Part shown: piece after piece, positions 9,835-60,522 of the stretch
How positions within the stretch are numbered: position 1 is the first letter of the stretch
Layout of the letters: each line of letters starts with the position of its first letter
Origin: Myxococcales bacterium
GTDB taxonomy: Bacteria; Myxococcota; Myxococcia; Myxococcales; UBA5297
Direction of reading: 5' to 3'
Assembly: GCA_049841135.1 (NCBI GenBank)
Contig: JASGHK010000008.1
Span: forward strand, 339,272 to 403,271
DNA length: 64,000 bases
Notes under the pieces: model-generated
What the model saw: only the letters and a program-made list of their open reading frames with translations
Databases searched by the model: none
Told to the model about the DNA's origin: nothing
Made by a program: the position numbers and the translations under genes

Positions 9835-10095
9835 GCGAGCGCCGTGAAACGACTTGCTGCATCACGACGGGGCTCGCGACCCAGCCAAGGGACCGGAGCG
9901 ACCTGCTAAAGATAGGCAGCTACTTTGTGACATGTTCTGCGACCCGGACTGAGCCGCGCGACCCGGAAACCCGAGGCCTTGCCGAAGTACCGCCTGGGCG
10001 ATCTGTCAGACCTCTGATGGAGCTCACCGAGCGCAGCGGCACCGCGCGGCCGGGCAGGCTTGACCAGGTACGAAAGTCGCTACCATATTTGGACC

Positions 10096-10372
10096 ATGAA
10101 GCTCACCGAGGACATCCAGCCCATCACCCAGTTGAAGACCCGCTCCTCGGAAGCTCATCCGTTCGGTCTCCCGCGATCGGCGCACGGTCGTCATCACCCA
10201 GCACGGGGAGGCGAAGGCCGTTCTCCTGGATGTCGCCACCTACGAGGCGCTCCGAGATGCCGCCCTGATGCACAGGCTCATCGGGCAGAGCGAAGCTGCC
10301 ATCCAGCAGGGCCGCACAGTCCCTCAGAAGGCGGTCTTCGAGCGCGTGCGAAGGCGCAAGAGCAAGCCCTAA
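10096..10372 (+). pseudogene. Phd/YefM-family antitoxin, frameshifted in this sequence (about 10153)
   Basis: Frame 1 reads MKLTEDIQPITQLKTRSSE and then degenerates. Frame 2 continues LIRSVSRDRRTVVITQHGEAKAVLLDVATYEALRDAALMHRLIGQSEAAIQQGRTVPQKAVFERVRRRKSKP*, ending at 10372. Together these make a textbook Phd/YefM antitoxin. An extra nucleotide sits in gaaGctc around 10150-10154. Frame 2 has no start codon of its own. Confidence 0.6.
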
Positions 10373-10391
10373 CCGGTCGAGGGCCTTCCTG

Positions 10392-10724
10392 ATGGCGCGA
10401 CGAACCGTCGAGTGGGCGGAGCCCGCAGTCGAGGACCTCCAGCGCATCTACGACTATCTGTGGGGCCTCAACCCCGGGGCGGCCGACCGAATCCTCACCC
10501 GCCTCGAAACAGCGGCCAGCCGCCTCGAGACGTTGGCAGAGCGTGGCCGGCTGGTGCCTGAGCTCGCAGACTCCGGGAACACCGGCTACCGCGAGCTGAT
10601 CGACGAGCCCTATCGAATCATCTACCGCATCCAGGGTAACCGAGTCTTCGTCGTCGCCGCGCTGGACGGGCGTCGCGACCTCGAATCGCTACTCCTCGAG
10701 CGATTGCTGGCTGCGCCTCGGTAG
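10392..10724 (+). CDS. parE: ParE/RelE-family type II toxin
   Basis: 110-aa protein with ...VEDLQRIYDYL...AADRILTRLE...YRELIDEPYRIIYRIQGNRVFVVAALDGRRDL, a ParE-type fold signature. The start overlaps the stop of the upstream frame-1 ORF as TGATG. Confidence 0.8.
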   Translation: MARRTVEWAEPAVEDLQRIYDYLWGLNPGAADRILTRLETAASRLETLAERGRLVPELADSGNTGYRELIDEPYRIIYRIQGNRVFVVAALDGRRDLESLLLERLLAAPR

Positions 10725-10789: not shown

Positions 10790-11224
10790 CTACTTCTTCG
10801 GCTCTTCCCGTGCCGGCGGCGCCTTCTCCACCATCGGCCGGGTCTCGGGCTTGCCGTCCTTGAACGGCGCGTTCCAGACCGCCGGCCGCTGCCCCTCGAT
10901 GCTCTCGCCGATGCCGCGCGTGGCGGTATCGGCGGAGGTCAGCCCGAACATGATGGCCAGGAACACGATCGAAAGCAGGAAGACCACCGCGTTGAACTTC
11001 CTCTTCTCGAACGCCAGGTGCATGAAGACGGCCGCTACCAGGCCCGCCTTCAGGGTGGCCACGCCCATCGCCACCAGGATGTTCCAGTTGCCGAAGTCGA
11101 GGTAGCTGACGCCGACCGTCAGCGCGGTCAGCACGAGCAGCGTGCCCCACACCCCCAGATAGCTCTTGAGCGGCAGGACGTGCGGGACGTGGTCTGCCGT
11201 GGACGTGTGTGCGTGTTCGCTCAT
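10790..11224 (-). CDS. coxD: cytochrome c oxidase subunit IV (prokaryotic caa3-type small subunit)
   Basis: 144-aa protein with three TM helices. The KSYLGVWGTLLVLTALTV segment is typical of the bacterial COX4 family. Lies directly downstream of coxC. Confidence 0.7.
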   Translation of the reverse strand: MSEHAHTSTADHVPHVLPLKSYLGVWGTLLVLTALTVGVSYLDFGNWNILVAMGVATLKAGLVAAVFMHLAFEKRKFNAVVFLLSIVFLAIMFGLTSADTATRGIGESIEGQRPAVWNAPFKDGKPETRPMVEKAPPAREEPKK

Positions 11225-11290
11225 TGCTCAGTCCTCTCGTTGCGCGGGCGTAAAAGCCTTCCGCTCTCCGACGGGCGTGGAAGCCCGCCG

Positions 11291-11953
11291 CTACCCGACG
11301 AGGTAGAGCAGCGGGAACAGGTAAATCCGAATCAAGTCCACCAGATGCCAGTAGAGCCCCACGCCCTCGACCGGAGAGTAGTAGCGGCTCGAGAACTCGC
11401 CCTTGCGCGCCCGCAGCAGGATCCAGGTGATGAGCGACATCCCGATGATGACGTGCAGGCCGTGGATGCCGGTCATCATGAAGTAGAGGCCGAAGAAGAT
11501 CTTGGCCGCCGGATACGCGAAGCCGTGCGCCGTGAAGTGCGCTCCGGGCAGCAGGCCGTCGGCGAACTTGTGGTGGTACTCGAAGCCCTTGATGACGAGG
11601 AAGGTGCCGGCCAGCGCCAACGTCAGGCCGAGCATCGCCAGCGTCTCGCCCTTCTTCGAGCGCTGCGCGGCCCGCACGCCCAGGGCCATGGTCAGGCTCG
11701 AGCAGATGAGCACCAGGGTGTTCACCGCGCCCATCACCTTGTCGAGGTGGTGGTGCGCCTCCTTGAACGCCTCGAAGTGCCACGACCGGAAGATGGCGAA
11801 GGCCACGAACAGGCCGCCGAAGAGCAGGATCTCGGTGACCAGGAAGATCCAGACGCCGAATTTGTTCGCCTCGAACTGGGTGTCGGCATCGTCGAAGTGG
11901 TGCGCGACCTGGAACTGCGGCGATAGGCTCTGCTCACTCACGTTCGTGCTCAT
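11291..11953 (-). CDS. ctaE: cytochrome c oxidase subunit III
   Basis: 220-aa C-terminal part of ORF 11291..13534 beginning MSTNVSEQ. Has the subunit-III motifs [32 protein letters not shown] and [10 protein letters not shown]. Its ATG overlaps the ctaD stop (ATGA). Confidence 0.9.
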
Positions 11954-13632
11954 GCTGCACTCCCCTGGCCCGGCTCTCCTGCAACCGCTGCGGGCTGCAG
12001 CGCCGCCGCGAAGTCGTAGGGGCCGTGGGTGACGACCGGGCGCTGCGTGAAGTTCTCGGTGATGGGCGGCGAGGCCGTCTGCCACTCCAGCGTCGCTCCG
12101 CCCCAGGGGTTGGCTTCCGCCTTCTTGCCGCTGCGCAGCGAAGCGATGAAGAGGACGAGGGTGACGAGCAGGCCGAGCCCCAGGATCCACGAGCCGACCG
12201 TCGAGAAGGCGTGGAAGAACTGGAACTTCTGCTCGTAGGCGTAGTAGCGCCGCGGCATCCCCCGGCTGCCCATGACGAACTGCACGAAGAAGGTGGCGTT
12301 GAAGCCGATGAACACCAGCGACCACGCGAGCCGGCCGAGCTTCTCCGAGTAGGTCCGCCCGGTGATCTTCGGCCACCAGTGGTGCAGCCCGCCCAGGAAC
12401 GCCATCAGCGTCCCGCCCACCATCACGTAGTGGAAGTGCGCGACGACGAAGTAGGTGTCGGTCAGGTGCACGTTCTGCGCGAGCATCCCCAGGAAGAGCC
12501 CGGTGAGCCCGCCGATGGTGAACAGGAAGAGGAAGCCCAGCGCGTAGAGCATGGGCACGGTCAGCGCGATGGAGCCGCGCCACAGCGTCGCGAGCCAGTT
12601 GAAGACCTTCACGCCGGAGGGGATGGCCACGAAGAAGGTCAAGAAGCTGAAGATGGTCGCCGCCAGGGGGCTCTGGCCGGAGATGAACATGTGGTGGCCC
12701 CAGACCAGGAAGCCCAGCAGCGCGATGGCCACGCTGGAGAAGGCGATGGCCTTGTAGCCGAAGATCTTCCGGCGCGCGTGGACGGCGATGACCTCGCTGA
12801 TCACCCCCATCGCCGGGAGGATCATGATGTAGACGGCGGGGTGGCTGTAGAACCAGAAGAAGTGCTGGAAGAGGATGGGGTCGCCGCCCAGCTTCGGGTC
12901 GAAGATGCCCAGCCCAAAGAGCCGCTCGGCGATGAGCAGGACGAGCGTGATGCCCAGCACCGGCGTCGCCAGGATCTGGATGATGCTCGTCGCGTAGAGC
13001 GCCCAGAGCATCAGCGGCATCTTGAACCAGGTCATCCCCGGCGCCCGCAGCTTGTGGATGGTGACGATGAAGTTGAGCCCGGTGAGGATGCTGGAGAAGC
13101 CCATGACGAACGCGCCCAGCGTGGTGGAGATGACCGGCGCGGAGGTGGTCGTCGAGTACGGCGTGTAGAACGTCCAGCCGGTGTCCACGCCGCCCGTCGC
13201 CAGCGAGGTGAGCGCGATGAGCGTCCCGGTCCAGTAGACGTAGAGGCTCAACAGGTTCAGCCGCGGAAAGGCGACGTCCTTGGCCCCCACCATCAGCGGC
13301 ACCAGGAAGTTGCCCAGCGCCGCCGGGATGGCCGGGATGATGAAGACGAAGATCATGATCACGCCGTGGAGCGTGAACACCCGGTTGTAGGTGTCGGGCG
13401 ACATCAGCGCCTCGCCCGGCCACAAGAGCTTGAGGCGGATGAGCAGGGCCAGGATGCCGCCCAGCGCGAACGCGACCAGCACGCTCACCAGGTACATGAC
13501 CCCGATCCGCTTGTGGTCGAGCGTGAGCAGCCACGAGAGCGCGCCCTTGCGCGCGCTCAGGTAGCTGCCGCCGCCGTCGTGCTCGTGGGCTTGGGGGACG
13601 GGCACCTGCCCGATGACTGCCGTGTGGGGCAT
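11950..13632 (-). CDS. ctaD: cytochrome c oxidase subunit I (haem-copper oxidase catalytic subunit), canonical copy
   Basis: 560-aa ORF with canonical motifs: TLHGVIMIF (haem a His), [11 protein letters not shown] (CuB His plus Tyr), WGHHMF (two CuB His), VAHFHYV (haem a3/a His). Confidence 0.95.
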
Positions 13633-13644
13633 CTCACGCCTCCG

Positions 13645-14583
13645 TCACTTCAGGCTCTTGATGTAGGCGACCAGCGCGTCGAGCTGCTTCTGCGACACGA
13701 GGCCCTTGAAGACCGGCATCACCGGCTGGAAGCCCTTCACGACCTTCGCGTTGGGGTCGGTGATGCTCTCGCGCAGGTACTGCTCGTCCGCCTTCACCGT
13801 GCTGCCGTCGGCGAGCTGGACGTCGTGCTCCGCCAGGCCCTTCCAGGTCGGTCCGGTGCCGGGCTTGCCGTCGGTCGTGTGGCAGGTCGTGCAGGCGAGC
13901 TTGGTGGAGAGCTTCTCGCCGGCCAGGACGGGCGGGACGTCCTTCTCCTCCGCCCCCGACTCCAGCCACTCGTTGAAGTCCTTCTCCGCCATCACCTCGA
14001 GCTTGCCGCGCATGGCCGAGTGGCCGGTGCCGCAGAACTCGGTGCAGGTGATGGTCTTGAGCCCCAGCTCGGTCGCCTCGAACCACGCGGTGGTGTAGCT
14101 CGAGGGCACCACGTCCTTCTTCAGGCGGAACTCCGGCACGTAGAAGGAGTGGATGACGTCCTTGGAGCTCATCACCAGCTTCACCGGCCGGCCGAGCGGC
14201 ACCTTGAGCTCGTTCACCGAGATCGCGCCGTTCGGGTAGGCGAAGGTCCACATCCACTTCTCGGCGGTGACCGAGACCTCCAGCGCGTTGGCCGGGGCGA
14301 TCTGCTGGTTCAGGAACCCCTTGAAGCCGACGACGAAGAGCACCAGCACGATCGCCACGGGGATGGCCGTCCAGACGATCTCGATGCGCGTGTTGTGGTC
14401 GGGCGCGTTCGGCAGCTCCTCCTCGGTGCGCCGCCGGTAGCGGATGGCGAAGAAGCTCATCCCCCCGACCACCAGCACGAAGAAGAAGGCCGAGACCCAC
14501 AGGACCAGGTCCCAACCTGCGTCGACCTGCCCCGCCACGGTCGAGGCCTGCTCCGGGAGCCAGAAGGATCCGCCGCTGCTCAT
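13645..14583 (-). CDS. coxB: cytochrome c oxidase subunit II with fused C-terminal cytochrome c domain (caa3-type), canonical copy
   Basis: CuA site H...CTEFCGTGHSAM and C-terminal CTTCH haem c motif. Start taken at the internal MSSGGSFWLPEQ; the ORF start at 14628 is possible but less likely. Confidence 0.9.
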   Translation of the reverse strand: MSSGGSFWLPEQASTVAGQVDAGWDLVLWVSAFFFVLVVGGMSFFAIRYRRRTEEELPNAPDHNTRIEIVWTAIPVAIVLVLFVVGFKGFLNQQIAPANALEVSVTAEKWMWTFAYPNGAISVNELKVPLGRPVKLVMSSKDVIHSFYVPEFRLKKDVVPSSYTTAWFEATELGLKTITCTEFCGTGHSAMRGKLEVMAEKDFNEWLESGAEEKDVPPVLAGEKLSTKLACTTCHTTDGKPGTGPTWKGLAEHDVQLADGSTVKADEQYLRESITDPNAKVVKGFQPVMPVFKGLVSQKQLDALVAYIKSLK

Positions 14584-14584
14584 G

Positions 14585-15463
14585 TCATCCCGCCCTCTCG
14601 TGCGCCGAGACTCGACCGTCGTCCGCACCCGGCCGAACGGGCCGATCGCGATCTCGGTCAGACGCCTGCGGGCTCCGGTTGAGGCGCCACAGGAACAGGC
14701 CCAGCAAGAGCACGCTCAGGGCGCCGCCGGCCTTCATCAACCGCGTCGCGGCCAGCACATAGCCGCGCGCGTTCGCGTCGTAGTGGAAGCAGAACAGGAC
14801 GACCTTGTCCCAGGCGCTGCCCAGCCTGCCCTCCGAGGCCTCGGTCAGCGCCAGCCGGAGGCTCTTCTCGGGGAAGCTGATGCCATAGAGGGTGCGCGAG
14901 AGCTTCCCGCCCGGGGTCACGACGAAGGCGCCCGCGGCGTGGGCGTACTCCTTCTGCTGCTCGTCCCAGCGGTAGTGGAAGCCGACTGCGTCCGCCAGCC
15001 GCTTCACGCTCGCCGCGTCGCCGGTCAGGAACTCGAAGCCCTTCTCCGGCACCGGGCGGCCGTACTCCTTCAGGTAGTTCTTCTGCTTCTGCTGGGCGAC
15101 CTCGGTCGTGTCCCGCGGGTCGAAGCTCACGACCAGCACGCGGTAGTCCTTGCCCGCGCTCCACGAGAGGTCCTTGAGCCCGTTGGTCAGGCCGTTGACC
15201 ACGAGCGAGCAGAGCATCGGGCAACGGAAGTACGCGAGGACCAGCACCACCGGCTTGCCGTCGGAGAAGTAGTCGCCGAGGGTCACCGCGCGCCCGGCGC
15301 CGTCCTTGAGGACGATCTCACGGGGAAGCTCTGCCCCCGGCTTCTCTTCGATGGCGATGTCCTTGAGCTCGGGAGGCAGCGCCTCCTCCGCTCGGGACTG
15401 GCCGCTCGCCAGAAGAGTCCCCATCATCGCCGCCATCACGGCGACTGCTCGCCACCGCCTCAT
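14585..15463 (-). CDS. sco: SCO1/SenC copper chaperone for CuA assembly
   Basis: Thioredoxin-like fold with CPMLC (CxxxC) and a conserved His region. Start chosen at MRRWRAVAVMAAMMGTLLASGQSRA (signal/anchor); a cat triplet was confirmed at 15461-63. Sits directly upstream of coxB. Confidence 0.8.
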   Translation of the reverse strand: MRRWRAVAVMAAMMGTLLASGQSRAEEALPPELKDIAIEEKPGAELPREIVLKDGAGRAVTLGDYFSDGKPVVLVLAYFRCPMLCSLVVNGLTNGLKDLSWSAGKDYRVLVVSFDPRDTTEVAQQKQKNYLKEYGRPVPEKGFEFLTGDAASVKRLADAVGFHYRWDEQQKEYAHAAGAFVVTPGGKLSRTLYGISFPEKSLRLALTEASEGRLGSAWDKVVLFCFHYDANARGYVLAATRLMKAGGALSVLLLGLFLWRLNRSPQASDRDRDRPVRPGADDGRVSAHERAG

Positions 15464-15562: not shown

Positions 15563-15597
15563 AAAAATGCAACGGCCCACCCCGAGCGGGGCGGGCC
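15563..15597 (-). terminator. intrinsic-terminator-like hairpin downstream of ctaD2
   Basis: Minus-strand RNA reads ggcccgccccg ctc ggggtgggcc followed by gttgcaTTTTT. A GC-rich 11-bp stem (one G-U pair) with a T-run lies about 120 nt after the ctaD2 stop and ahead of sco. Confidence 0.35.
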
Positions 15598-15720
15598 GCA
15601 TTGAACGGATGCCAGTCGCTGATCATCCGCCGAGCAACTGAGATTCCATCGTCTCCTCAGCCCGCGCAGGCGGGCTTCGCAACGTCAGGCGCGGCTTCAG
15701 CCGCCGGCACGCGGGCCGCG

Positions 15721-17367
15721 CTACGCCGCCTTGGCCTCCGGCGTCGCCGCGAGCGCGGCCCCGAAGTCGTACGGGCCGTGCTCGACCACCGGGGCCTCTA
15801 CGAAGTTCGCGGCCAGCGGAGGAGAAGGCGCGCGCCACTCGAGGCTCGCGCCACCCCAGGGATTGGCGGCGGCCTTGCTCCCGCTGCGCAGCGACTGGAC
15901 GAAGACGCCCAGCACCACCAGCACCCCCAGCCCGAGGATCCACGTCCCCACGGTCGAGAAGCCCTGCAGGAAGCGCAGGCCCTCCTCGTACGCGTAGTGG
16001 CGGCGGGGCATCCCGCGGCTGCCCAGCACGAACTGGACGAAGAAGGTCGCGTTGATGCCGAGCATCAGCAGGCCCCAGCCCAGGCGCCCCAGGCTCTCGG
16101 AGGTCGTCCGTCCGGTGATCTTCGGCCACCAGTGGTGCAGCCCCGCCAGGAACGCCATCGCGGTGCCGCCGACGACCAGGTAGTGCAGGTGCGCGACCTC
16201 GAAGTAGCTGGAGGACAGGTAGGCGCCCTGCGCGAGCATCGCCAGGAACAGGCCGGCGAGCCCGGCGATGGTGAAGAGCGCGACGAAGCCCAGCGCATAG
16301 AGCATCGGGACGGTCAGCGCGATGGAGCCGCGCCACAGCGTCGCCAGCCAGCTGAGCACCAGCACGAACATGGGGACGATCGCCAGCAGGCCGAGCACGC
16401 TGAAGAGGGCCGAGGAGTGCGGGCTCTGCCCCGCCACCACCAGGTGCTGTCCCCAGGCCACCAGGCCCAGCCCCGCGGTGCCGAACGTCGCGGCGACGAT
16501 GGGCCAGTAGCCGAAGCTGCGCCGGGCGTGCACGGCGATCACCTCGCTCACCACGCCCACGCCCGGCAGGAGCGCCAGGTAGACCGCGTTGTGCGCGTAG
16601 AACCAGAAGAGCTGCTGGTAGACGAGCGGGCTGCCGCCCTTGGCCACGTCGAACTGGCCCAGCCCGAAGGCGCGGTCGGCCAGCAGCACCAGCATCGCCG
16701 AGCCCAGCGCCGGGGTGGCGACGAGGTGCAAGAGGCTCGTCGCGTAGAGCGCCCAGAGCGTCATCGGCAGCTTGTGCCAGGAGAGGCCCGGGGCGCGCAT
16801 CCGGTGGATGGTGCCCAGGAAGTTGAGCCCGGTGAGCGCGCCGGAGAAGCCCATCACGAAGACGCCCAGCGCCACCGCCGGCACCGGCCCCTCCGCCGTC
16901 GTCGACCGCGGCGGCGCCAGCATCCACCCGGTGTCCAGGCCGCCGCTCGCGAAGGAGGAGAGCGCGATCAGCGCGCCCGCCCAGTAGAGGTAGAGGCTCG
17001 CCCGGTTCAGGCGCGGGTAGGCGACGCCCTTGGCGCCCACCATCAGCGGGACGAGGAAGTTGCCCAGCACCGCGGGGATGGCGGGCACGACGAAGGCGAA
17101 GCCCATGACCACGCCGTGGAGCGTCAGCAGGCGCAGCCAGGTCGCGGGGTCGATGAGCGCCTCGCCCGGCCAGAGCATCTTCAACCGCACCAGGCCCGCC
17201 AGCGTGCCGCCGAGCGCGAAGATGACCAGCACGCTCGCCAGGTACATCAGCGCGATCCGCTTGTGGTCGGTCGTGAGGAGCCAGGACGAGGGGCCGCGCC
17301 CCGCGTCGAGATAGCTGGGGGCAGGCTCTTTCGCCGATGTCTGGCTTGCGGAGGTGGACTCGGCCAT
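15721..17367 (-). CDS. ctaD: cytochrome c oxidase subunit I paralogue, divergent (ACIII-linked copy)
   Basis: 548-aa C-terminal part of ORF 15721..18285 starting MAESTSASQ; a cat triplet was confirmed at 17365-67. It aligns colinearly with the canonical copy. It reads WGQHLVVAGQSP where the canonical copy has [12 protein letters not shown], and GAYLSSSYFEVAHLHY where the canonical copy has [16 protein letters not shown]. Confidence 0.85.
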   Translation of the reverse strand: MAESTSASQTSAKEPAPSYLDAGRGPSSWLLTTDHKRIALMYLASVLVIFALGGTLAGLVRLKMLWPGEALIDPATWLRLLTLHGVVMGFAFVVPAIPAVLGNFLVPLMVGAKGVAYPRLNRASLYLYWAGALIALSSFASGGLDTGWMLAPPRSTTAEGPVPAVALGVFVMGFSGALTGLNFLGTIHRMRAPGLSWHKLPMTLWALYATSLLHLVATPALGSAMLVLLADRAFGLGQFDVAKGGSPLVYQQLFWFYAHNAVYLALLPGVGVVSEVIAVHARRSFGYWPIVAATFGTAGLGLVAWGQHLVVAGQSPHSSALFSVLGLLAIVPMFVLVLSWLATLWRGSIALTVPMLYALGFVALFTIAGLAGLFLAMLAQGAYLSSSYFEVAHLHYLVVGGTAMAFLAGLHHWWPKITGRTTSESLGRLGWGLLMLGINATFFVQFVLGSRGMPRRHYAYEEGLRFLQGFSTVGTWILGLGVLVVLGVFVQSLRSGSKAAANPWGGASLEWRAPSPPLAANFVEAPVVEHGPYDFGAALAATPEAKAA

Positions 17368-17420
17368 CTCGCGGCTCCTGTTGGGTGCGCAGGCCTTGGG
17401 CAACGCCCGTCGGCCCGGAC

Positions 17421-18356
17421 TCAGTTGAGGCTCTTGATGTAGGCGACCAGCGCGTCGATCTGCTTGGGCGTCAGCTGTGACTTGAAGGCAGGCATCAGCG
17501 GCTGGAAGCCCTTCACGATCTTCGCGTTGGGCTCGGTGATGCTCTCGCGCAGGAAGGCGTCGTCGGCGACGACCCTCGAGCCGTCCGCCAGCTCGACCTG
17601 TGCCCCGCCCAGCGCCTTCCAGGTCGGCCCCGTGCCCGGCTTGCCGTCGACCGTGTGGCAGGTGTTGCAGGCGAACTTGGTGGCCAGCTTCTCGCCGCTC
17701 TGCACCGGCGGCAGCTTGTCGCCGTTGGCGTCGAGCCAGTCGCCGAACTCGCGGGCGTTCATCACCACCACCTTGCCGTTCTGCGCGGCGTGCTTGACCC
17801 CGCAGGTGCCGGTACACGCGAAGGAGAGGGTCCCTTCCTGGGTAGGCTCGAACCAGACCGTGGAGCTCGACCCGGGGACGATGTCCTTCTTCACACGGAA
17901 TTCCGGGACCGAGAAGCCGTGGATGACGTCCTTGGAGGTCATCGTCAGCATCACCGGCTGCCCCACCGGGACGCGGAGCTCGTCGACGGCGGTGGCGCCG
18001 TTGGCGTACTCGAAGCTCCAGGCCGTCTTCTCGGCGGTCACCGAGACCGCGAGCGCGTTCGCCGGGGCGATCTGCTGGTCGATGAAGCCCTTGAAGCCGG
18101 CCAGGAAGAGCACGGCGACCAGGACGGCCGGGAGGATGGCGAAGGCCATCTCCAGCTTGCGCAGCCGCTGCGGCCCCGCGGGGATCTCGCCCTCGTTGCG
18201 GCGGCGGTAGCGGACGACCAGGGCGGCCATCGCCGTCACCACCACCAGGAAGGTCGCCACGGCGACCCAGAGCGCCAGTCCCCAACCCGCGTCGACCCGC
18301 CCGGCCGAGGTGGAGGCCGCTTCGGGAAGCCAGAAGGTGGGCGCGGAGGGGTTCAC
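17421..18356 (-). CDS. coxB: cytochrome c oxidase subunit II paralogue with cytochrome c domain, divergent CuA site
   Basis: 311-aa ORF. DVIHGFSVPEF...FACTGTCGVKHAAQNGKV aligns residue-for-residue with the canonical ITCTEFCGTGHSAMRGKL: both Cys and the His are conserved, Met is replaced by Gln and Glu by Gly. C-terminal CNTCH haem c motif. Confidence 0.85.
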   Translation of the reverse strand: MNPSAPTFWLPEAASTSAGRVDAGWGLALWVAVATFLVVVTAMAALVVRYRRRNEGEIPAGPQRLRKLEMAFAILPAVLVAVLFLAGFKGFIDQQIAPANALAVSVTAEKTAWSFEYANGATAVDELRVPVGQPVMLTMTSKDVIHGFSVPEFRVKKDIVPGSSSTVWFEPTQEGTLSFACTGTCGVKHAAQNGKVVVMNAREFGDWLDANGDKLPPVQSGEKLATKFACNTCHTVDGKPGTGPTWKALGGAQVELADGSRVVADDAFLRESITEPNAKIVKGFQPLMPAFKSQLTPKQIDALVAYIKSLN

Positions 18357-18853
18357 TTCGGCTTCCCCGTCTCGGTCGGCGCTCCCTTGGGAGCTTCGGC
18401 CGGCTTGGTGGTATCAGCTGGCTTGCCGGCGGGCGGTGTCGCAGGCGCGGGCGACGTCGCAGGCGCAGTCGCAGGGACGGCGTCGGGCGGAGGGATCACG
18501 AAGCCGGCGGGACGGGCCGTCCACTCCGCGAGGACGCGCTCCCGGGCGCGATTCGAGCGGGATGCGCAGCACACCGTTCTTCTGGTCGACCCACTGGTAG
18601 CGCGTGAGCTTGGTCTCCTCGTCGGCGCGCAGCTGGCGCAGGACCGGGTTCTCGACCGAGTTCACCTTGGAGTCGATCTCCTCGAGCACCGAGACCTTGA
18701 AGAACTGGTCGACGGCCAGGACCACGCCCAGCAGGACGATCACCGAGGCGAGGACGAAGACGAAGATGAACGCGGTGTTCGGCCGGTCCTGCTCGGTGTG
18801 CCCCTCCGAACCCGGGGAGGGGCTTGGGGAGGGGTTGGGGGAGGGATGGTCGC

Positions 18854-18857
<4 letters not shown>
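18353..18857 (-). pseudogene. small single-TM protein between actF and coxB2 with Pro/Ala/Thr-rich C-terminal tail; possible accessory ACIII/oxidase subunit; apparent frameshift near 18545
   Basis: The ATG at 18857 overlaps the actF stop (ATGA). The N-terminus MSDHPSPNPSPSPSPGSEGHTEQDRPNTAFIFVFVLASVIVLLGVVLAVDQFF...YQWVDQKNGVLRIPLE is in the frame of ORF 18414..19787. A second frame (ORF 18353..18574) continues ...RARERVLAEWTARPAGFVIPPPDAVPATAPATSPAPATPPAGKPADTTKPAEAPKGAPTETGKPK*, and its stop overlaps the coxB2 ATG (ATGA). The two frames are joined by a 1-nt indel in a CCC run. Confidence 0.35.
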
Positions 18858-20049
<1,192 letters not shown>

Positions 20050-20053
<4 letters not shown>

Positions 20054-20667
20054 TTGGCCTCCGGCTCGATCTTGTCCTGGCGGTCCGCGGGGACGTCGGC
20101 AGGGGTCGCGTGCTGCGAGCGCTGCAGGACGCGGAGCCAGGTGACGATGGCCCAGCGGTCCTCCTCGGGCACCTGGACGGCGTAGCTCGGCATGTTGCGA
20201 ACGCCGTGGGTCATGACGTCGAAGATCTGCCCGTCGGCGAAGCCGCGTACCCGCTCGCCGGTCAGGTCCACCGGCGGCGGGAAGCCGCGCTGCACCGTCA
20301 TCCCGCGTCCGCTGCCCGACCGGTCGTGGCAGGAGGAGCAGAAGATGTTGAAGCGCTCCTGCCCGCGCTTGAGCGTGGCCTCGCTCACCTCGATGGGCGC
20401 CTTGGCCACGAAGCCCTGCGCGGTCTTGCCGGTGTAGTAGACCTCGTCGGCCTTGAGCTGACCCTGCGCCACCGTCCCCGCGACCGGCGTGCGCATGCCC
20501 TTGCCGTCCGCGAAGATCAGGCTGGCGGCCTCGGGCTTCACCTTCGGCTGCACGCGCATGTCGGGGATGGGGTGGATGGGCGGGTCGGCCGAGGGCTGGC
20601 CGCGGCAGGCGGACAACGCCAGCGCGGCGAAGAGGATGCCGCGGTTCGCCCAGAGTCGGGAGGTCAT
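20050..20667 (-). CDS. actE: alternative complex III subunit ActE (monohaem cytochrome c lipoprotein)
   Basis: [21 protein letters not shown] lipobox and a single CSSCH haem motif. The ATG at 20667 overlaps the actD stop (ATGA); cat confirmed at 20665-67. Confidence 0.8.
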
Positions 20668-21275
20668 GGCCGCACCTCCTCGATGGTCGCTGCGCCCTTC
20701 TCCTCGAACATCGCCTTCACCTTTGCCAGGTCGAAGCGCGGGTCGCTGGACTCGACGCTCACCAGGAACCGGTCGTCGCTGGCCTTGGGGAACGCCTCGG
20801 CCTGCATCACCGGGTGGAAGAACTTGGGCAGCCGGTTGAGCCCCCACATCCCGAAGAACGTGCCGAAGGCCGTCAACAGGATGGTCGTCTCGAAGCCGAT
20901 GGGCACGTAGGCCTGCCAGGCGACGAACGGCTTGCCGGACAGGTTGAGCGGGTAGTCGTAGCCCATCGTCCAGATCTGCAGGAGCAGGCCGCCGACCAGG
21001 CCCGCGAGCCCGCCCGCGAGCGAGAGGTACGGGACCTTGGAGTCCTTCATCCCCATCGCCCGCTCGATGCCGTGGACTGGGAACGGGGTGTGCGCGTCGA
21101 AGGCCTGGAAGCCCAGGTCGCGCAGCTCCTCGAGGGCGTGGAGCATGGTCTCCGGCGCCTCGAAGGATGCGACCACCGCGAAGGGCTGGTCCGCGGCGGC
21201 CGCGCCCGCCGCCGGCTGGGGCGAAGGGAGGGCTTCGGCGGCGCCGGTGCTCGTCGTCGTCTCAGGCGATGGCAT
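20664..21275 (-). CDS. actD: alternative complex III subunit ActD (DUF3341)
   Basis: 203-aa protein with a C-terminal amphipathic/TM region. Located between actC and actE. The start may be further downstream (for example the M of MLHALEEL). Confidence 0.7.
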
Positions 21276-22697
21276 TGGCGTCCTCGACCTTGGTGGCGGG
21301 GGCGGGCGACGGGCCGGGCTTGGCGCCGTGCGCTCCGTGGGGCATCACGCCCTTGACCTCCGCGATGGCGATCATCGGCATGAAGCGGATGAAGAGCAGG
21401 AACAGCGTGAAGAAGAGGCCGAAGGTGCCGATGAAGGTGGTGATGTCGACGAGGGTCGGCGTGAAATAGCCCCAGCTGGACGGCAGGTAGTCGCGATGCA
21501 GGCTCGTCACGATGATGACGAAGCGCTCGAACCACATGCCGATGTTCACGAAGATGGTGAGGACGAAGCTCGCCACCACGCTGGTGCGCACCTTCTTGAA
21601 CCAGAACAGCTGCGGGGTGATGACGTTGCAGGTCATCATCGTCCAGTACGCCCAGGCGTACGGGCCGAACGCGCGGTTGATGAAGGTGAACTTCTCGTAC
21701 TCGTTGCCGCTGTACCAGGCGATGAAGAACTCCAGCCCGTACGCGTAGCCGACCATGCTCCCGGTCGCGAGCATGATCTTGTTCATGTTCTCGATGTGCC
21801 GCATCGTCACCAGCTCTTCCAGGTGGAAGACCTTGCGGCAGATGATCATCAGCGTCTGCACCATCGCGAAGCCGCTGAAGACGGCGCCGGCGACGAAGTA
21901 CGGCGGGAAGATGGTCGTGTGCCAGCCGGGGATGACCGAGGTGGCGAAGTCGAAGCTGACGATGGTGTGCACCGAGAGAACCAGCGGCGCCGAGATGCCC
22001 GCGAGGATCAGGTAGGCCTTCTCGTAGTTCGACCAGTGCCGCGCCGAGCCGCGCCAGCCCAGGGCCAGGATGCCGAAGATGATCTGCCGGGCCCGGGTCT
22101 TGGCCCGGTCGCGCAGGGTCGCCAGGTCGGGGACCAGGCCGGTGTACCAGAACAGCAGCGAGACCGTGCCGTAGGTCGAGACGGCGAAGAAGTCCCAGAG
22201 CAGCGGCGAGCGGAAGTTGGGCCACATCCCCATCTGGTTGGGCACGGGGATCATCCAGTACGCGAACCAGATTCGGCCGACGTGGAAGCCGGGGTAGATG
22301 AGCGCCGCCAGCACCGCGAAGAGCGTCATCGCCTCCGCGGCGCGGTTGATGGAGGTGCGCCACTTCTGCCGGAAAAGGAAGAGGATGGCGCTGATCAGCG
22401 TGCCGGCGTGGCCGATGCCGATCCAGAAGACGAAGCCGGTGATGTCCCAGGCCCAGCCGACGGGATGGTTCAGGCCCCACTCGCCGGTACCGTTCCAGAC
22501 GAGGTCGCCCAGGCTCCCCGCGAGCACCATCAGCCCGAAGAAGGTGATGGCGATGAGGAAGAGCCAGGGCTTGGGGGTCTTGGCCTCGGTGATGCCGGCG
22601 ACCTTGTCGGTCACCGAGTGCAGGTCGTGGTTGCCCAGGACCAGCGACGGCCGCGCGATGGCGTCGTCGACCACCAGGGTTTCGGGGCGGGCGCCGC

Positions 22698-22701
<4 letters not shown>
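21262..22701 (-). CDS. actC: alternative complex III subunit ActC (NrfD/PsrC-like quinol-interacting membrane subunit)
   Basis: 479-aa C-terminal part of ORF 21262..24672 from [11 protein letters not shown]. Ten-helix NrfD-like hydrophobic pattern. The ATG at 22701 overlaps the actB stop (ATGA). Confidence 0.85.
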
Positions 22702-25750
<3,049 letters not shown>

Positions 25751-25754
<4 letters not shown>

Positions 25755-26401
25755 CGGTGGCACCCCGAGCAGTGCAACGGCGGCTGGACCTCGCGGCCGG
25801 TCGGCGCCACCGCCCTGGGCGGCGACTGGGCCGGCTGCTTCCAGGCCATGTTGGTGATCTCGCTCGCCGGCCGCAGGCTCTTGCCCGGGTCGCGGTGACA
25901 GTCCAGGCACCAGCTCATCGACAGCGGCTCGCGCTGGATGACCTTGGGCATCTGGTCCACGCGGCCGTGGCAGCTCGAGCAGCCGACGCCCGCCGCCAGG
26001 TGCGCCCCGTGGTTGAAGTAGACGTAGTCCGGCAGCTTGTGCACGCGCACCCAGGGGATGGGCGTGTCGTTCGCGAAGCTCTCGCGGACCGGCAACAGCT
26101 TGGCGCTGTCGAGGCGGACCTTGGTGTGGCAGTTCATGCAGACCTGCGTCGGCGGGACCGCCGCCATGTTCGCCCGCTCCACCGAGTAGTGGCAGTAGCG
26201 GCAGTCCATGCCCAGGTCGCCGGCGTGCAGCTTGTGGCTGTACTCCACCGGCTGGTCGGGTTGGTAGCCGACCTCGAGGTGCTTGTTGGTCCCGTAGTAC
26301 CAGAGGGCCAGCACGACGGCCGTCGCCGCCGGCCCGAGGCCGAAGAAGAAGATCCACTTCAGGGCCTGATTGGACCAGCGGGGAAAGAAGTAGCGTGGCA
26401 T
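25751..26401 (-). CDS. actA: alternative complex III subunit ActA (pentahaem cytochrome c, membrane anchored)
   Basis: 216 aa with an N-terminal TM helix. Five CxxCH motifs: CRYCH, CMNCH, CSSCH, CLDCH, CSGCH. Confidence 0.85.

Positions 26402-58221: not shown

Positions 58222-60522
<2,301 letters not shown>

Follow-up and report, generated by a model that had tools for sequence, protein, structure and literature searches.

A divergent caa3-type oxidase pair beside the ACIII genes of a Myxococcales bacterium is a candidate non-pumping partner of ACIII

Introduction

Supercomplexes of ACIII with an oxidase are known from Rhodothermus and Flavobacterium, and in the putative NO dismutase (NOD) an active-site His of the haem-copper oxidase (HCO) framework is replaced by Asn. 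In the HCOs that have been studied intensively, the three CuB His residues and the D and K proton channels are treated as defining. An ACIII-A2 caa3 'superoperon' has been described for Acidobacteria (PMC8407424). Murali et al. (2024, PMC11214002) describe gNOR, in which an active-site His has become Asp, as the first HCO with such a replacement, and trace every new HCO family to a B-family or C-family ancestor; the NO reductases (NORs) are without conserved cytoplasmic proton channels (PMC11214002). Here we analyze a divergent pair of oxidase subunit genes, CoxII' and CoxI', which directly follows the ACIII genes in a 64,000-nucleotide stretch of DNA (hereafter the window) from a Myxococcales bacterium (assembly GCA_049841135.1, contig JASGHK010000008.1, positions 339,272 to 403,271). 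An initial annotation of this window, made from the sequence alone, had reported changed metal ligands in the pair and had suggested altered redox tuning or different chemistry. The substitutions prove to be genuine, and we suggest that the interpretation shifts from a retuned oxidase to an oxidase-derived, non-pumping partner of ACIII, with a modest chance of a new catalytic class.

Results

CoxII' (17421-18356, minus strand) encodes 311 amino acids (P0121) comprising a cupredoxin domain and a C-terminal cytochrome c domain, and CoxI' (15721-17367, minus strand) encodes a 548-amino-acid divergent paralogue of HCO subunit I (P0001). Both intervals are exactly those first annotated, and both subunits are collinear with their canonical neighbors, as had been claimed. 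BLASTP aligns CoxI' with the adjacent canonical CoxI at 63% identity over 528 amino acids with a single one-residue gap, and CoxII' with the adjacent canonical CoxII at 58% identity over 310 amino acids with one two-residue gap, neither of these gaps lying near the motifs discussed below. CoxI' also aligns end to end with NCBIfam TIGR02891 (the CtaD_CoxA equivalog; positions 1-504 of 504), yet it scores 519.1 bits, below the cut-off of 670.75, whereas the canonical CoxI scores 688.4; CoxII' scores 145.8 with TIGR02866, below the cut-off of 147.7, compared with 187.6 for the canonical CoxII. It is because CoxI' falls below the equivalog cut-off that it carries the generic NCBI name 'cbb3-type cytochrome c oxidase subunit I'. 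CoxI' thus fits an A-family profile over its whole length, and no NOR family is found among its NCBIfam matches. Its best match among solved structures is the Thermus caa3 oxidase (2YEV_A, 1.8e-106), and the closest structures are all A-family oxidases.

Of the six invariant His residues of A-family HCOs, which serve the low-spin haem a (two), haem a3 (one) and CuB (three), five are present in CoxI' (H84, H395, H393, H259 and H308), and the sixth is Q307. At the CuB HH pair (Q307-H308, 16444..16449, minus strand) WGHHMF has become WGQHLV, and the codon for Q307 (16447-16449) is CAG in the window as well as in the related loci L001, L005 and L004 that are described below. The replacement of the first His of the pair, which the initial annotation had pointed out, is supported by TIGR02891, by 2YEV and by all of the orthologues. 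The alignment with 2YEV pairs wgQh with waHh, gakG with garD, fvLv with gvKl and lSSsyf with fHDsyf. A register shift or indel that would place the conserved His elsewhere was considered and ruled out: the spacing to W-G on one side and to G-Q-S-P on the other is unchanged, which makes a shift impossible, and the gap-free flanks, the end-to-end TIGR02891 profile and the 2YEV alignment all agree. As also reported initially, the haem ligands H84, H393 and H395 and the CuB His-Tyr pair (H259-N-A-V-Y263) are retained, as are R455 and R456.

The alignment further shows, beyond what the initial annotation listed, that CoxI' is without the carboxylate and the Lys and Ser residues of both cytoplasmic proton-input channels. 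At the entrance of the D channel (17026..17028, minus strand) the equivalent of Rhodobacter sphaeroides D132 is G114, AKDVAF having become AKGVAY (in AKGVAYPRLN), in a column that is 100% Asp in 161 canonical relatives. A Ser further along this channel is G176 (GFSSIL to GFSGAL), and at A258-H259-N260 (16588..16596, minus strand) the A2-type YSHP reads YAHN, so that the D channel loses its inner-end Ser and the Pro is replaced, with the CuB His and Y263 left in place. Two D-channel Asn residues are kept in the window's CoxI', one of which is Gly in the orthologue P0003. In the K channel (M333...L336, 16360..16371, minus strand) IPSGVKVF has become VPMFVLVL (in VPMFVLVLSW), with Met at the Ser/Thr position and Leu at the equivalent of K362, a column that is 100% Lys in the canonical relatives. 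The Tyr of the GWTFY motif, 99% conserved in the canonical relatives, is Ala (A151, 16915..16917, minus strand), and the Phe between two haem His ligands is Leu (AHFHY to AHLHY).

At the Mg/Mn site (S385-S386...E390, 16198..16215, minus strand) the canonical LTDTYFV has become LSSSYFE, the wider CoxI' form being AYLSSSYFEVAH. The Asp equivalent to D412 is replaced by S386 (16210-16212), and a new Glu, E390, has taken the place of a Val four residues, or one helical turn, past the lost Asp and three residues before the haem a3 ligand H393; E390 is fixed in P0001 and its orthologues P0002 and P0003. The initial annotation had counted both a His and an Asp as lost from the subunit I side of this site. 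The loss of the Asp stands, but that of the His does not: the Mg His would sit directly in front of the Asp, where the window's canonical CoxI already has Thr and CoxI' has Ser. The His of 'VHLTD', three residues before the Asp, is not a Mg ligand and is kept in P0002. Since the canonical copy has no His there to begin with, only the loss of the Asp in subunit I and of a Glu in subunit II count for Mg.

In subunit II, the CuA loop (C181-T-G183-T-C185-G-V-K-H189-A-A-Q192, 17781..17816, minus strand) has changed from the canonical CTEFCGTGHSAM to CTGTCGVKHAAQ. The Mg-bridging Glu is G183, whose main-chain carbonyl is still available to CuA, and the axial Met is Q192, with the Cys2His2 set of Cys181, Cys185, H189 and His146 kept, all as first described. 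Among the 120 closest subunit II proteins, the Met-to-Gln replacement is confined to P0121-P0124. The first Trp of KWMW, present in 111 of the 120 relatives, is T111 (18024..18026, minus strand) and is lost in every member of the clade; from work on Paracoccus denitrificans and R. sphaeroides, we take this residue to be the Trp through which electrons enter CuA. The haem c site of CoxII' (C230-N-T-C233-H234 and M288, 17493..17669, minus strand; Pfam PF00034/PF13442) is intact.

With a conservation of 93% or more among the 161 canonical relatives as the threshold, 110 columns are near-invariant, and P0001-P0003 deviate at 23-26 of them. For comparison, 24 canonical enzymes with 60-66% identity to the canonical copy, a range that matches the overall divergence of CoxI', have a mean of 1.1 and a maximum of 5 such columns changed. 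The divergence of CoxI' is therefore aimed at the functional core and is not random.

Among 5.8 billion proteins, the close orthologues of CoxI' are P0002 (89% identity) and P0003 (82%), and those of CoxII' are P0122-P0124 (75-80%). Every substitution described above, including both Gln replacements, is fixed in P0002, P0003 and P0122-P0124. The initial annotation had allowed that the unusual codons might be sequencing errors, but they are genuine, as the same residues are found in orthologues from NCBI, JGI and Logan assemblies. Four sequence variants, drawn from seven or more independent datasets, have both frames intact and identical key residues. P0008, more distantly related (60% identity), is also intact; like CoxI', it has the Gln at CuB, the D-channel Gly and the K-channel Leu and is without the Mg Asp. 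Gln307 is invariant across P0001-P0003 and P0008. By the Nei-Gojobori method, the ratio of nonsynonymous to synonymous substitution rates (dN/dS) is 0.17-0.24 for CoxI' and 0.28-0.35 for CoxII', compared with 0.16 and 0.33 for the canonical CoxI and CoxII and 0.24-0.28 for ActF, and the G+C content at third codon positions (GC3) of the pair is 0.96-0.97 (CoxI' 0.97), like that of the rest of the operon. By these estimates CoxII'-CoxI' is under ordinary purifying selection, and the independent assemblies, dN/dS and GC3 together indicate that the pair is neither a pseudogene nor an assembly error.

Within the wider clade of the window, the CuA ligands are eroding. P0008, in L004 (Logan SRR26347933, 5492-9174), adjoins a subunit II-like gene in which the second CuA His is Tyr (CAEYCGAGYSQM). 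On a 2-kb contig (L008 624-2041, ENA ERZ27257342) the subunit II protein P0125, which has the two-residue deletion of the CoxII' clade and several of its derived motifs, has lost both CuA His and the Met (His to Gln, His to Asn and Met to Pro). What follows P0125 is the N-terminus of a canonical-looking subunit I, so that a degenerate subunit II is there joined to an apparently intact subunit I. In L004, the subunit II-like gene is followed by genes for a 260-amino-acid secreted-looking protein and a 93-amino-acid Cys-rich open reading frame (ORF).

The divergent pair is tied to ACIII. CoxII'-CoxI' lies immediately 3' of the ACIII genes and on the same strand in the window, L001, L002, L003 and L005, and the order of the ACIII genes is identical in L001 and L005. 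In L001 (GCA_036504155.1) the full arrangement of the window, from ACIII through the canonical cox set, is repeated. At L005 (Logan ERR14947305; also L006/L007), which carries P0003, the SCO1-CoxII-CoxI-CoxIII-CoxIV set is absent from the locus, and CoxI' is followed directly by genes for proteins of 181 and 342 amino acids, which in L001 come after CoxIV. In the clade of the window, the constant companion of ACIII is the divergent pair and not the canonical pair.

A wider search was made with a profile of P0001, P0002, P0003 and P0008 against 1.84 billion cluster representatives. This library is clustered at 50% identity and therefore cannot enumerate close members of the window's clade; the counts that follow are taken from the full-length sequences among the best 150 representatives. 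A Gln in place of this CuB His occurs in at least 19 more of the 50%-identity clusters. The K-channel Lys is replaced in all 19 (by Val, Ile, Met or Leu in 16), as is the D-channel Asp (by Asn in 8 and Gly in 7). The Mg Asp is lost in 18 of the 19 (Gly in 8) and kept in one, the GWTFY Tyr is lost in nearly all, and the haem a3 His itself is lost in 9. At the position of E390, five of these lineages have also changed Val to Glu, and one more has changed Val to Asp. A scan of GTDB genome contigs with a generic pattern (GNFLVPLM) gave only canonical oxidases among the matches listed. The combination of substitutions had at first seemed unfamiliar from any characterized family, and we too found none that has it, but its subunit I part is seen again in many lineages from metagenomes. 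The initial proposal that the Mg-site residues of the two subunits were lost by co-evolution fares less well: the paired loss is confined to the window's clade, and the other His-to-Gln lineages lose the subunit I Asp yet keep the subunit II Glu (or Asp), so that co-evolution is not shown.

The genes around these proteins were inspected in ten lineages, the window's own counted, and seven are linked to ACIII. P0001 and P0002 (window and L001) stand in the order ACIII, II', I', hairpin, SCO1, II, I, III, IV, and P0003 (L005) in the order ACIII, II', I', without the canonical set. For P0243, ACIII is followed by a subunit II with intact CuA, a fusion of I' with III, and IV; for P0247 by a II-like subunit that has lost the CuA Cys, again an I'+III fusion, and IV; and for P0245 by II-like, I', III-like and IV-like genes. 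P0244 has ACIII, II and I', and P0255 has ACIII, SCO1, II and I'. The lineages without a link to ACIII are those of P0248, whose II-like partner is without CuA, of P0008, and of P0300 (L095 7421-8953, JGI 3300037048), an orphan subunit I among housekeeping genes with no subunit II, III or IV nearby. Each of the eight subunit II-like partners inspected keeps the haem c CxxCH and Met, while the CuA ligands are variably lost. As several of the lineages with this subunit I pattern are without the haem a3 His or CuA, a loss of catalysis is favored over new chemistry.

A separate group of subunit I(+III) proteins of about 790-855 amino acids (P0295, P0312, P0313, P0325, P0340, P0347, P0363 and P0374) has Gln in place of the K-channel Lys and keeps all six His as well as the acidic D-channel residue (Asp; Glu in two). 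As this group is otherwise apparently intact, the canonical Lys is not universal in A-family-like enzymes, and a missing K362 is not decisive when taken alone.

With regard to origin, the CoxI' clade carries 8-10 of 20 residues diagnostic of the local myxobacterial canonical clade, and P0008 carries 11 of 20, compared with 0-3 of 20 in the other degenerate sequences. The identity of CoxI' to canonical enzymes falls from 0.62 to 0.45, and these enzymes rank alike when compared with the canonical copy. We conclude that CoxI' is an old tandem duplicate of the local ACIII-linked A2-type caa3 oxidase, nested in the local canonical clade, whose functional sites changed in a burst before constraint returned. 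A recent conversion of the gene by its canonical neighbor was also considered, and was ruled out by a sliding-window comparison in which no DNA tracts of high identity appear.

A single, ancient and monophyletic 'Gln family' would be an alternative origin. A neighbor-joining tree does lump all of the degenerate sequences together, and quartet site counts give many shared derived states. However, for most of the degenerate representatives a canonical sequence is as near as the other degenerate ones or nearer, and a profile built from 19 degenerate sequences finds only canonical oxidases in its top 120. On synapomorphies, identities and this profile search we provisionally reject a single family, and provisionally attribute the tree grouping and the excess of shared derived states to long branches plus convergent replacement at freed positions. 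An origin of the window's clade separate from that of the other degenerate lineages is well supported by these comparisons; independent origins among the remaining lineages are put forward provisionally.

In the window, which has a G+C content of about 70%, the locus around the pair is laid out on the minus strand. The ACIII block (18414-26401) has Pfam matches to multihaem cytochrome c, 4Fe-4S plus molybdopterin-like, NrfD, ActD and cytochrome c, and comprises ActA (25751-26401), ActB (22698-25754), ActC (21262-22701), ActD (20664-21275, Pfam ActD match of 208 bits), ActE (20050-20667), ActF (18854-20053) and an ActG-like gene (18414-18857), the last ACIII gene before CoxII'. In the window, the ACIII genes and CoxII'-CoxI' overlap or abut. 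Some 250 nucleotides separate CoxI' from SCO1/SenC (14585-15463), the first gene of the canonical cox set (10790..15463), in which CoxII (13645-14583), CoxI (11950-13632), CoxIII (11291-11953) and CoxIV (10790-11224) follow, all on the minus strand; these canonical subunits served as our A2-type caa3 reference. The gap holds a GC-rich hairpin (15572-15599, minus strand; 12 bp, 10 GC pairs), about 120 nucleotides past the CoxI' stop codon and followed by TGCATTTTTG, and a conserved upstream region and ribosome-binding site precede SCO1. By its match to the consensus, the hairpin may be a terminator-like boundary between an ACIII-CoxII'-CoxI' unit and the canonical cox unit. Neither nir, nor or nos genes nor haem A genes as functional context were found within the 64-kb window.

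Three other features of the window were noticed. The ActG-like gene looks frameshifted relative to its orthologues, with the shift near 18545: past 'VLRIPLE' it runs into an Arg/Pro-rich tail, and the other frame continues as 'RARERVLAEW.ARP.GFV.PPPD', as in L001, L005 and L008. This may reflect either an assembly indel or a real truncation. At 58222-60522 (minus strand) a single stop-free frame of 766 codons (GC3 0.98) encodes complete GAPDH N- and C-domains (residues 3-333) and a complete phosphoglycerate kinase domain (366-755), and is either a gap-pgk fusion or the product of a lost stop codon. Past CoxIV, on the opposite strand (10060-10724, plus), lie two adjacent ORFs of 110 amino acids, the second of which (MARRTVEWAEP...YRIIYRI...VFVVAALDGRRD) was recognized by eye as a putative ParE/RelE-type toxin.

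Discussion

Mutagenesis in R. sphaeroides, P. denitrificans and Escherichia coli has shown that K362M oxidases are essentially inactive, that D132A and D132N enzymes are slow and do not pump, and that mutants of the HH pair lose CuB and activity. CoxI' combines natural changes at all of these places, and CoxII'-CoxI' is almost certainly, judging from its aligned residues, no longer an energy-conserving oxidase. As cytoplasmic protons would not reach the binuclear site, the module would be unable to pump. The initial suggestion of altered redox tuning or different chemistry thus holds as far as the substitutions go, but with the loss of both proton-input channels, the GWTFY Tyr and the entry Trp, a description as an oxidase that no longer pumps takes the place of altered tuning.

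As to what the pair does instead, we think there is about an even chance that CoxII'-CoxI' serves as a de-energized, electron-accepting or relay partner and scaffold of ACIII. Electrons from ACIII (ActA/ActE) would pass to the haem c domain of CoxII', then to its Gln-capped and probably lower-potential CuA, and on to haem a; with no cytoplasmic protons arriving at the binuclear site, there would be neither pumping nor charge separation, and coupled O2 reduction would be left to the neighboring and probably separately transcribed SCO1-CoxII-I-III-IV set. The other lineages suggest that ACIII-linked caa3 modules may share a trajectory in which the CuB His becomes Gln, buried charges are replaced, and the haem a3 His or CuA is then lost. 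Catalytic ligands erode further in other lineages, whereas the membrane body and the haem c domain are kept throughout; this is the decisive argument for a relay or scaffold, and it suggests that selection preserves the handling of electrons and the association with ACIII rather than catalysis.

Several observations weigh against a relay or scaffold. Through P0008 the rest of the binuclear site is complete, with two CuB His, the haem a3 His, the cross-link Tyr and the two Arg of the haem propionates; the replacement is always Gln in the window's clade, and E390 has become fixed one helical turn from where the Mg Asp was lost. A relay or scaffold would not obviously call for constraint this strict, which fits a modified but working site. 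The ACIII of Rhodothermus marinus is reportedly stable without an oxidase, and a requirement for a scaffold is therefore not established. Finally, the hairpin after CoxI' is kept in L001 without the T-run, and L005 has a different GC hairpin; as the T-run is not conserved in L001, the separate transcription of the two units stays a proposal.

The strongest competing explanation, which we regard as possible but rather doubtful, is that the pair is a neofunctionalized reductase, in which haem a3 and a His2-Gln non-haem metal site would still be catalytic in a NOR-like, non-electrogenic fashion. Protons would come from the periplasm by way of the vacated Mg site and the relocated carboxylate E390, and the substrate might be NO, O2 (in uncoupled overflow or scavenging) or peroxide. 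The retention of H259, Y263, H308, H393, R455 and R456 together with the invariance of Gln307 from P0001-P0003 to P0008 speaks for such an enzyme, as do the kept CuA Cys2His2 set with its clade-specific Met-to-Gln change and the fixed Val-to-Glu change at i+4 from the lost Asp, repeated in five other lineages and as Val to Asp in one more. Both cytoplasmic channels are lost, as in cNOR and qNOR, the His-to-Asp change of gNOR gives a precedent, and loss of the GWTFY Tyr fits an abandoned O-O splitting chemistry; according to Murali et al. (2024, PMC11214002), sNOR and nNOR have no Trp/Tyr chains. Yet the cross-link Tyr that is kept is an O2-reductase hallmark absent from NORs, there is no NOR-type Glu cluster, the window is without detected nir, nor or nos genes, and the electron-entry Trp is lost. 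Moreover, sister lineages lose CuA ligands, and in other lineages of the same pattern the haem a3 His itself is lost while the gene still persists. A broader form of this proposal, in which ACIII-linked A2 oxidases would have repeatedly and independently become a new A-family-derived, NOR-like class of non-electrogenic reductases acting on NO, O2 or peroxide, with a His2-Gln site, no cytoplasmic channels, periplasmic protons delivered through E390 and electrons fed by ACIII quinol oxidation, seems to us unlikely.

That CoxII'-CoxI' is an ordinary second caa3 isoenzyme, carrying out coupled O2 reduction with substitute proton residues, a Gln-ligated CuB and altered redox tuning, is quite improbable. 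All of the haem ligands, the His-Tyr pair and the CuA Cys and His are indeed present, SCO1 is adjacent, and some apparently intact A-family representatives combine Lys to Gln with six His. But here the D-channel Asp and Ser, the Ser of YS, and the K-channel Lys and Ser are gone together with the CuB His, no conserved acidic, basic or His residue in P0001-P0003 compensates for them, both subunits score under the curated equivalog cut-offs, and the count of changed near-invariant columns is far from the 1.1 of true isoenzymes equally diverged. It is scarcely credible that the genes are decaying pseudogenes or that assembly or sequencing has produced an artefact. The contig does come from a metagenome-assembled genome, and one or more probable indel errors or frameshifts lie in the window, among them that of the neighboring ActG-like gene, but the frames and key residues agree in four variants from at least seven independent datasets, dN/dS (0.17-0.35) and GC3 match those of the neighbors, and the clade is still intact out to the 60% identity of P0008.

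If CoxII'-CoxI' is a relay or scaffold, ACIII has a dedicated partner that was previously unrecognized, and gene counts of 'aerobic respiration' based on coxA/coxB are inflated. Were it still catalytic, CoxII'-CoxI' would stand as the first HCO of A-family descent in which the non-haem metal site is modified, and as a natural experiment that separates the residues needed for pumping from those needed for chemistry. Surveys that require six His ligands would filter proteins of the CoxI' type out, and a natural Gln-capped CuA should be of interest to copper-site chemists. In the open-access literature we found no report of an A-family HCO with a CuB His-to-Gln change, of ACIII-linked degenerate oxidases, or of a natural CuA Met-to-Gln change.

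Among known systems, the pair most resembles the A2-type caa3 oxidase of Thermus thermophilus (2YEV), with which it shares the fold, collinearity over the full length and a cytochrome c fused to subunit II, and its position right after ActA-G is that of the oxidase in the ACIII-caa3 superoperon. It differs from an A2-type caa3 in that CoxI' is without the full set of six His, the D channel, the K channel and an equivalog-level score, in that the Mg-site Asp and Glu, the CuA axial Met, the entry Trp and the GWTFY Tyr are missing from CoxI' or CoxII', and in that CoxII'-CoxI' has no dedicated subunit III or IV. With gNOR and NOD it has in common that one of the three His of the non-haem metal is replaced and that the coupling machinery is altered or absent. 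However, gNOR and NOD descend from the B or C/qNOR branches, whereas CoxI' is A2-derived and 63% identical to the adjacent caa3, has Gln at the replaced position and still carries the cross-link Tyr, with the Cys and His of CuA retained in CoxII'; searches of proteins, NCBIfam and structures found no sequence relationship of CoxI' to gNOR or NOD.

The likeness to cNOR and qNOR lies in the missing cytoplasmic proton channels, as a result of which no pumping is expected of CoxI'. Those C-family enzymes have three His and a Glu at FeB, a Glu cluster, no cross-link Tyr, and a cytochrome c subunit or quinol in place of CuA, and none of these features is found in CoxI'/CoxII'. For the CuA site, the nearest parallels are engineered variants of the Thermus CuA domain, in which replacing the axial Met by Gln reportedly gives a lower reduction potential without preventing formation of the copper site, and stellacyanin, a type 1 copper protein with a natural axial Gln and a lower reduction potential. 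In each case, a Gln amide takes the place of the weak axial thioether. Unlike the engineered variants, the Gln of CoxII' is natural, is fixed in four lineages, and is combined with the loss of the Mg-bridging Glu and the entry Trp.

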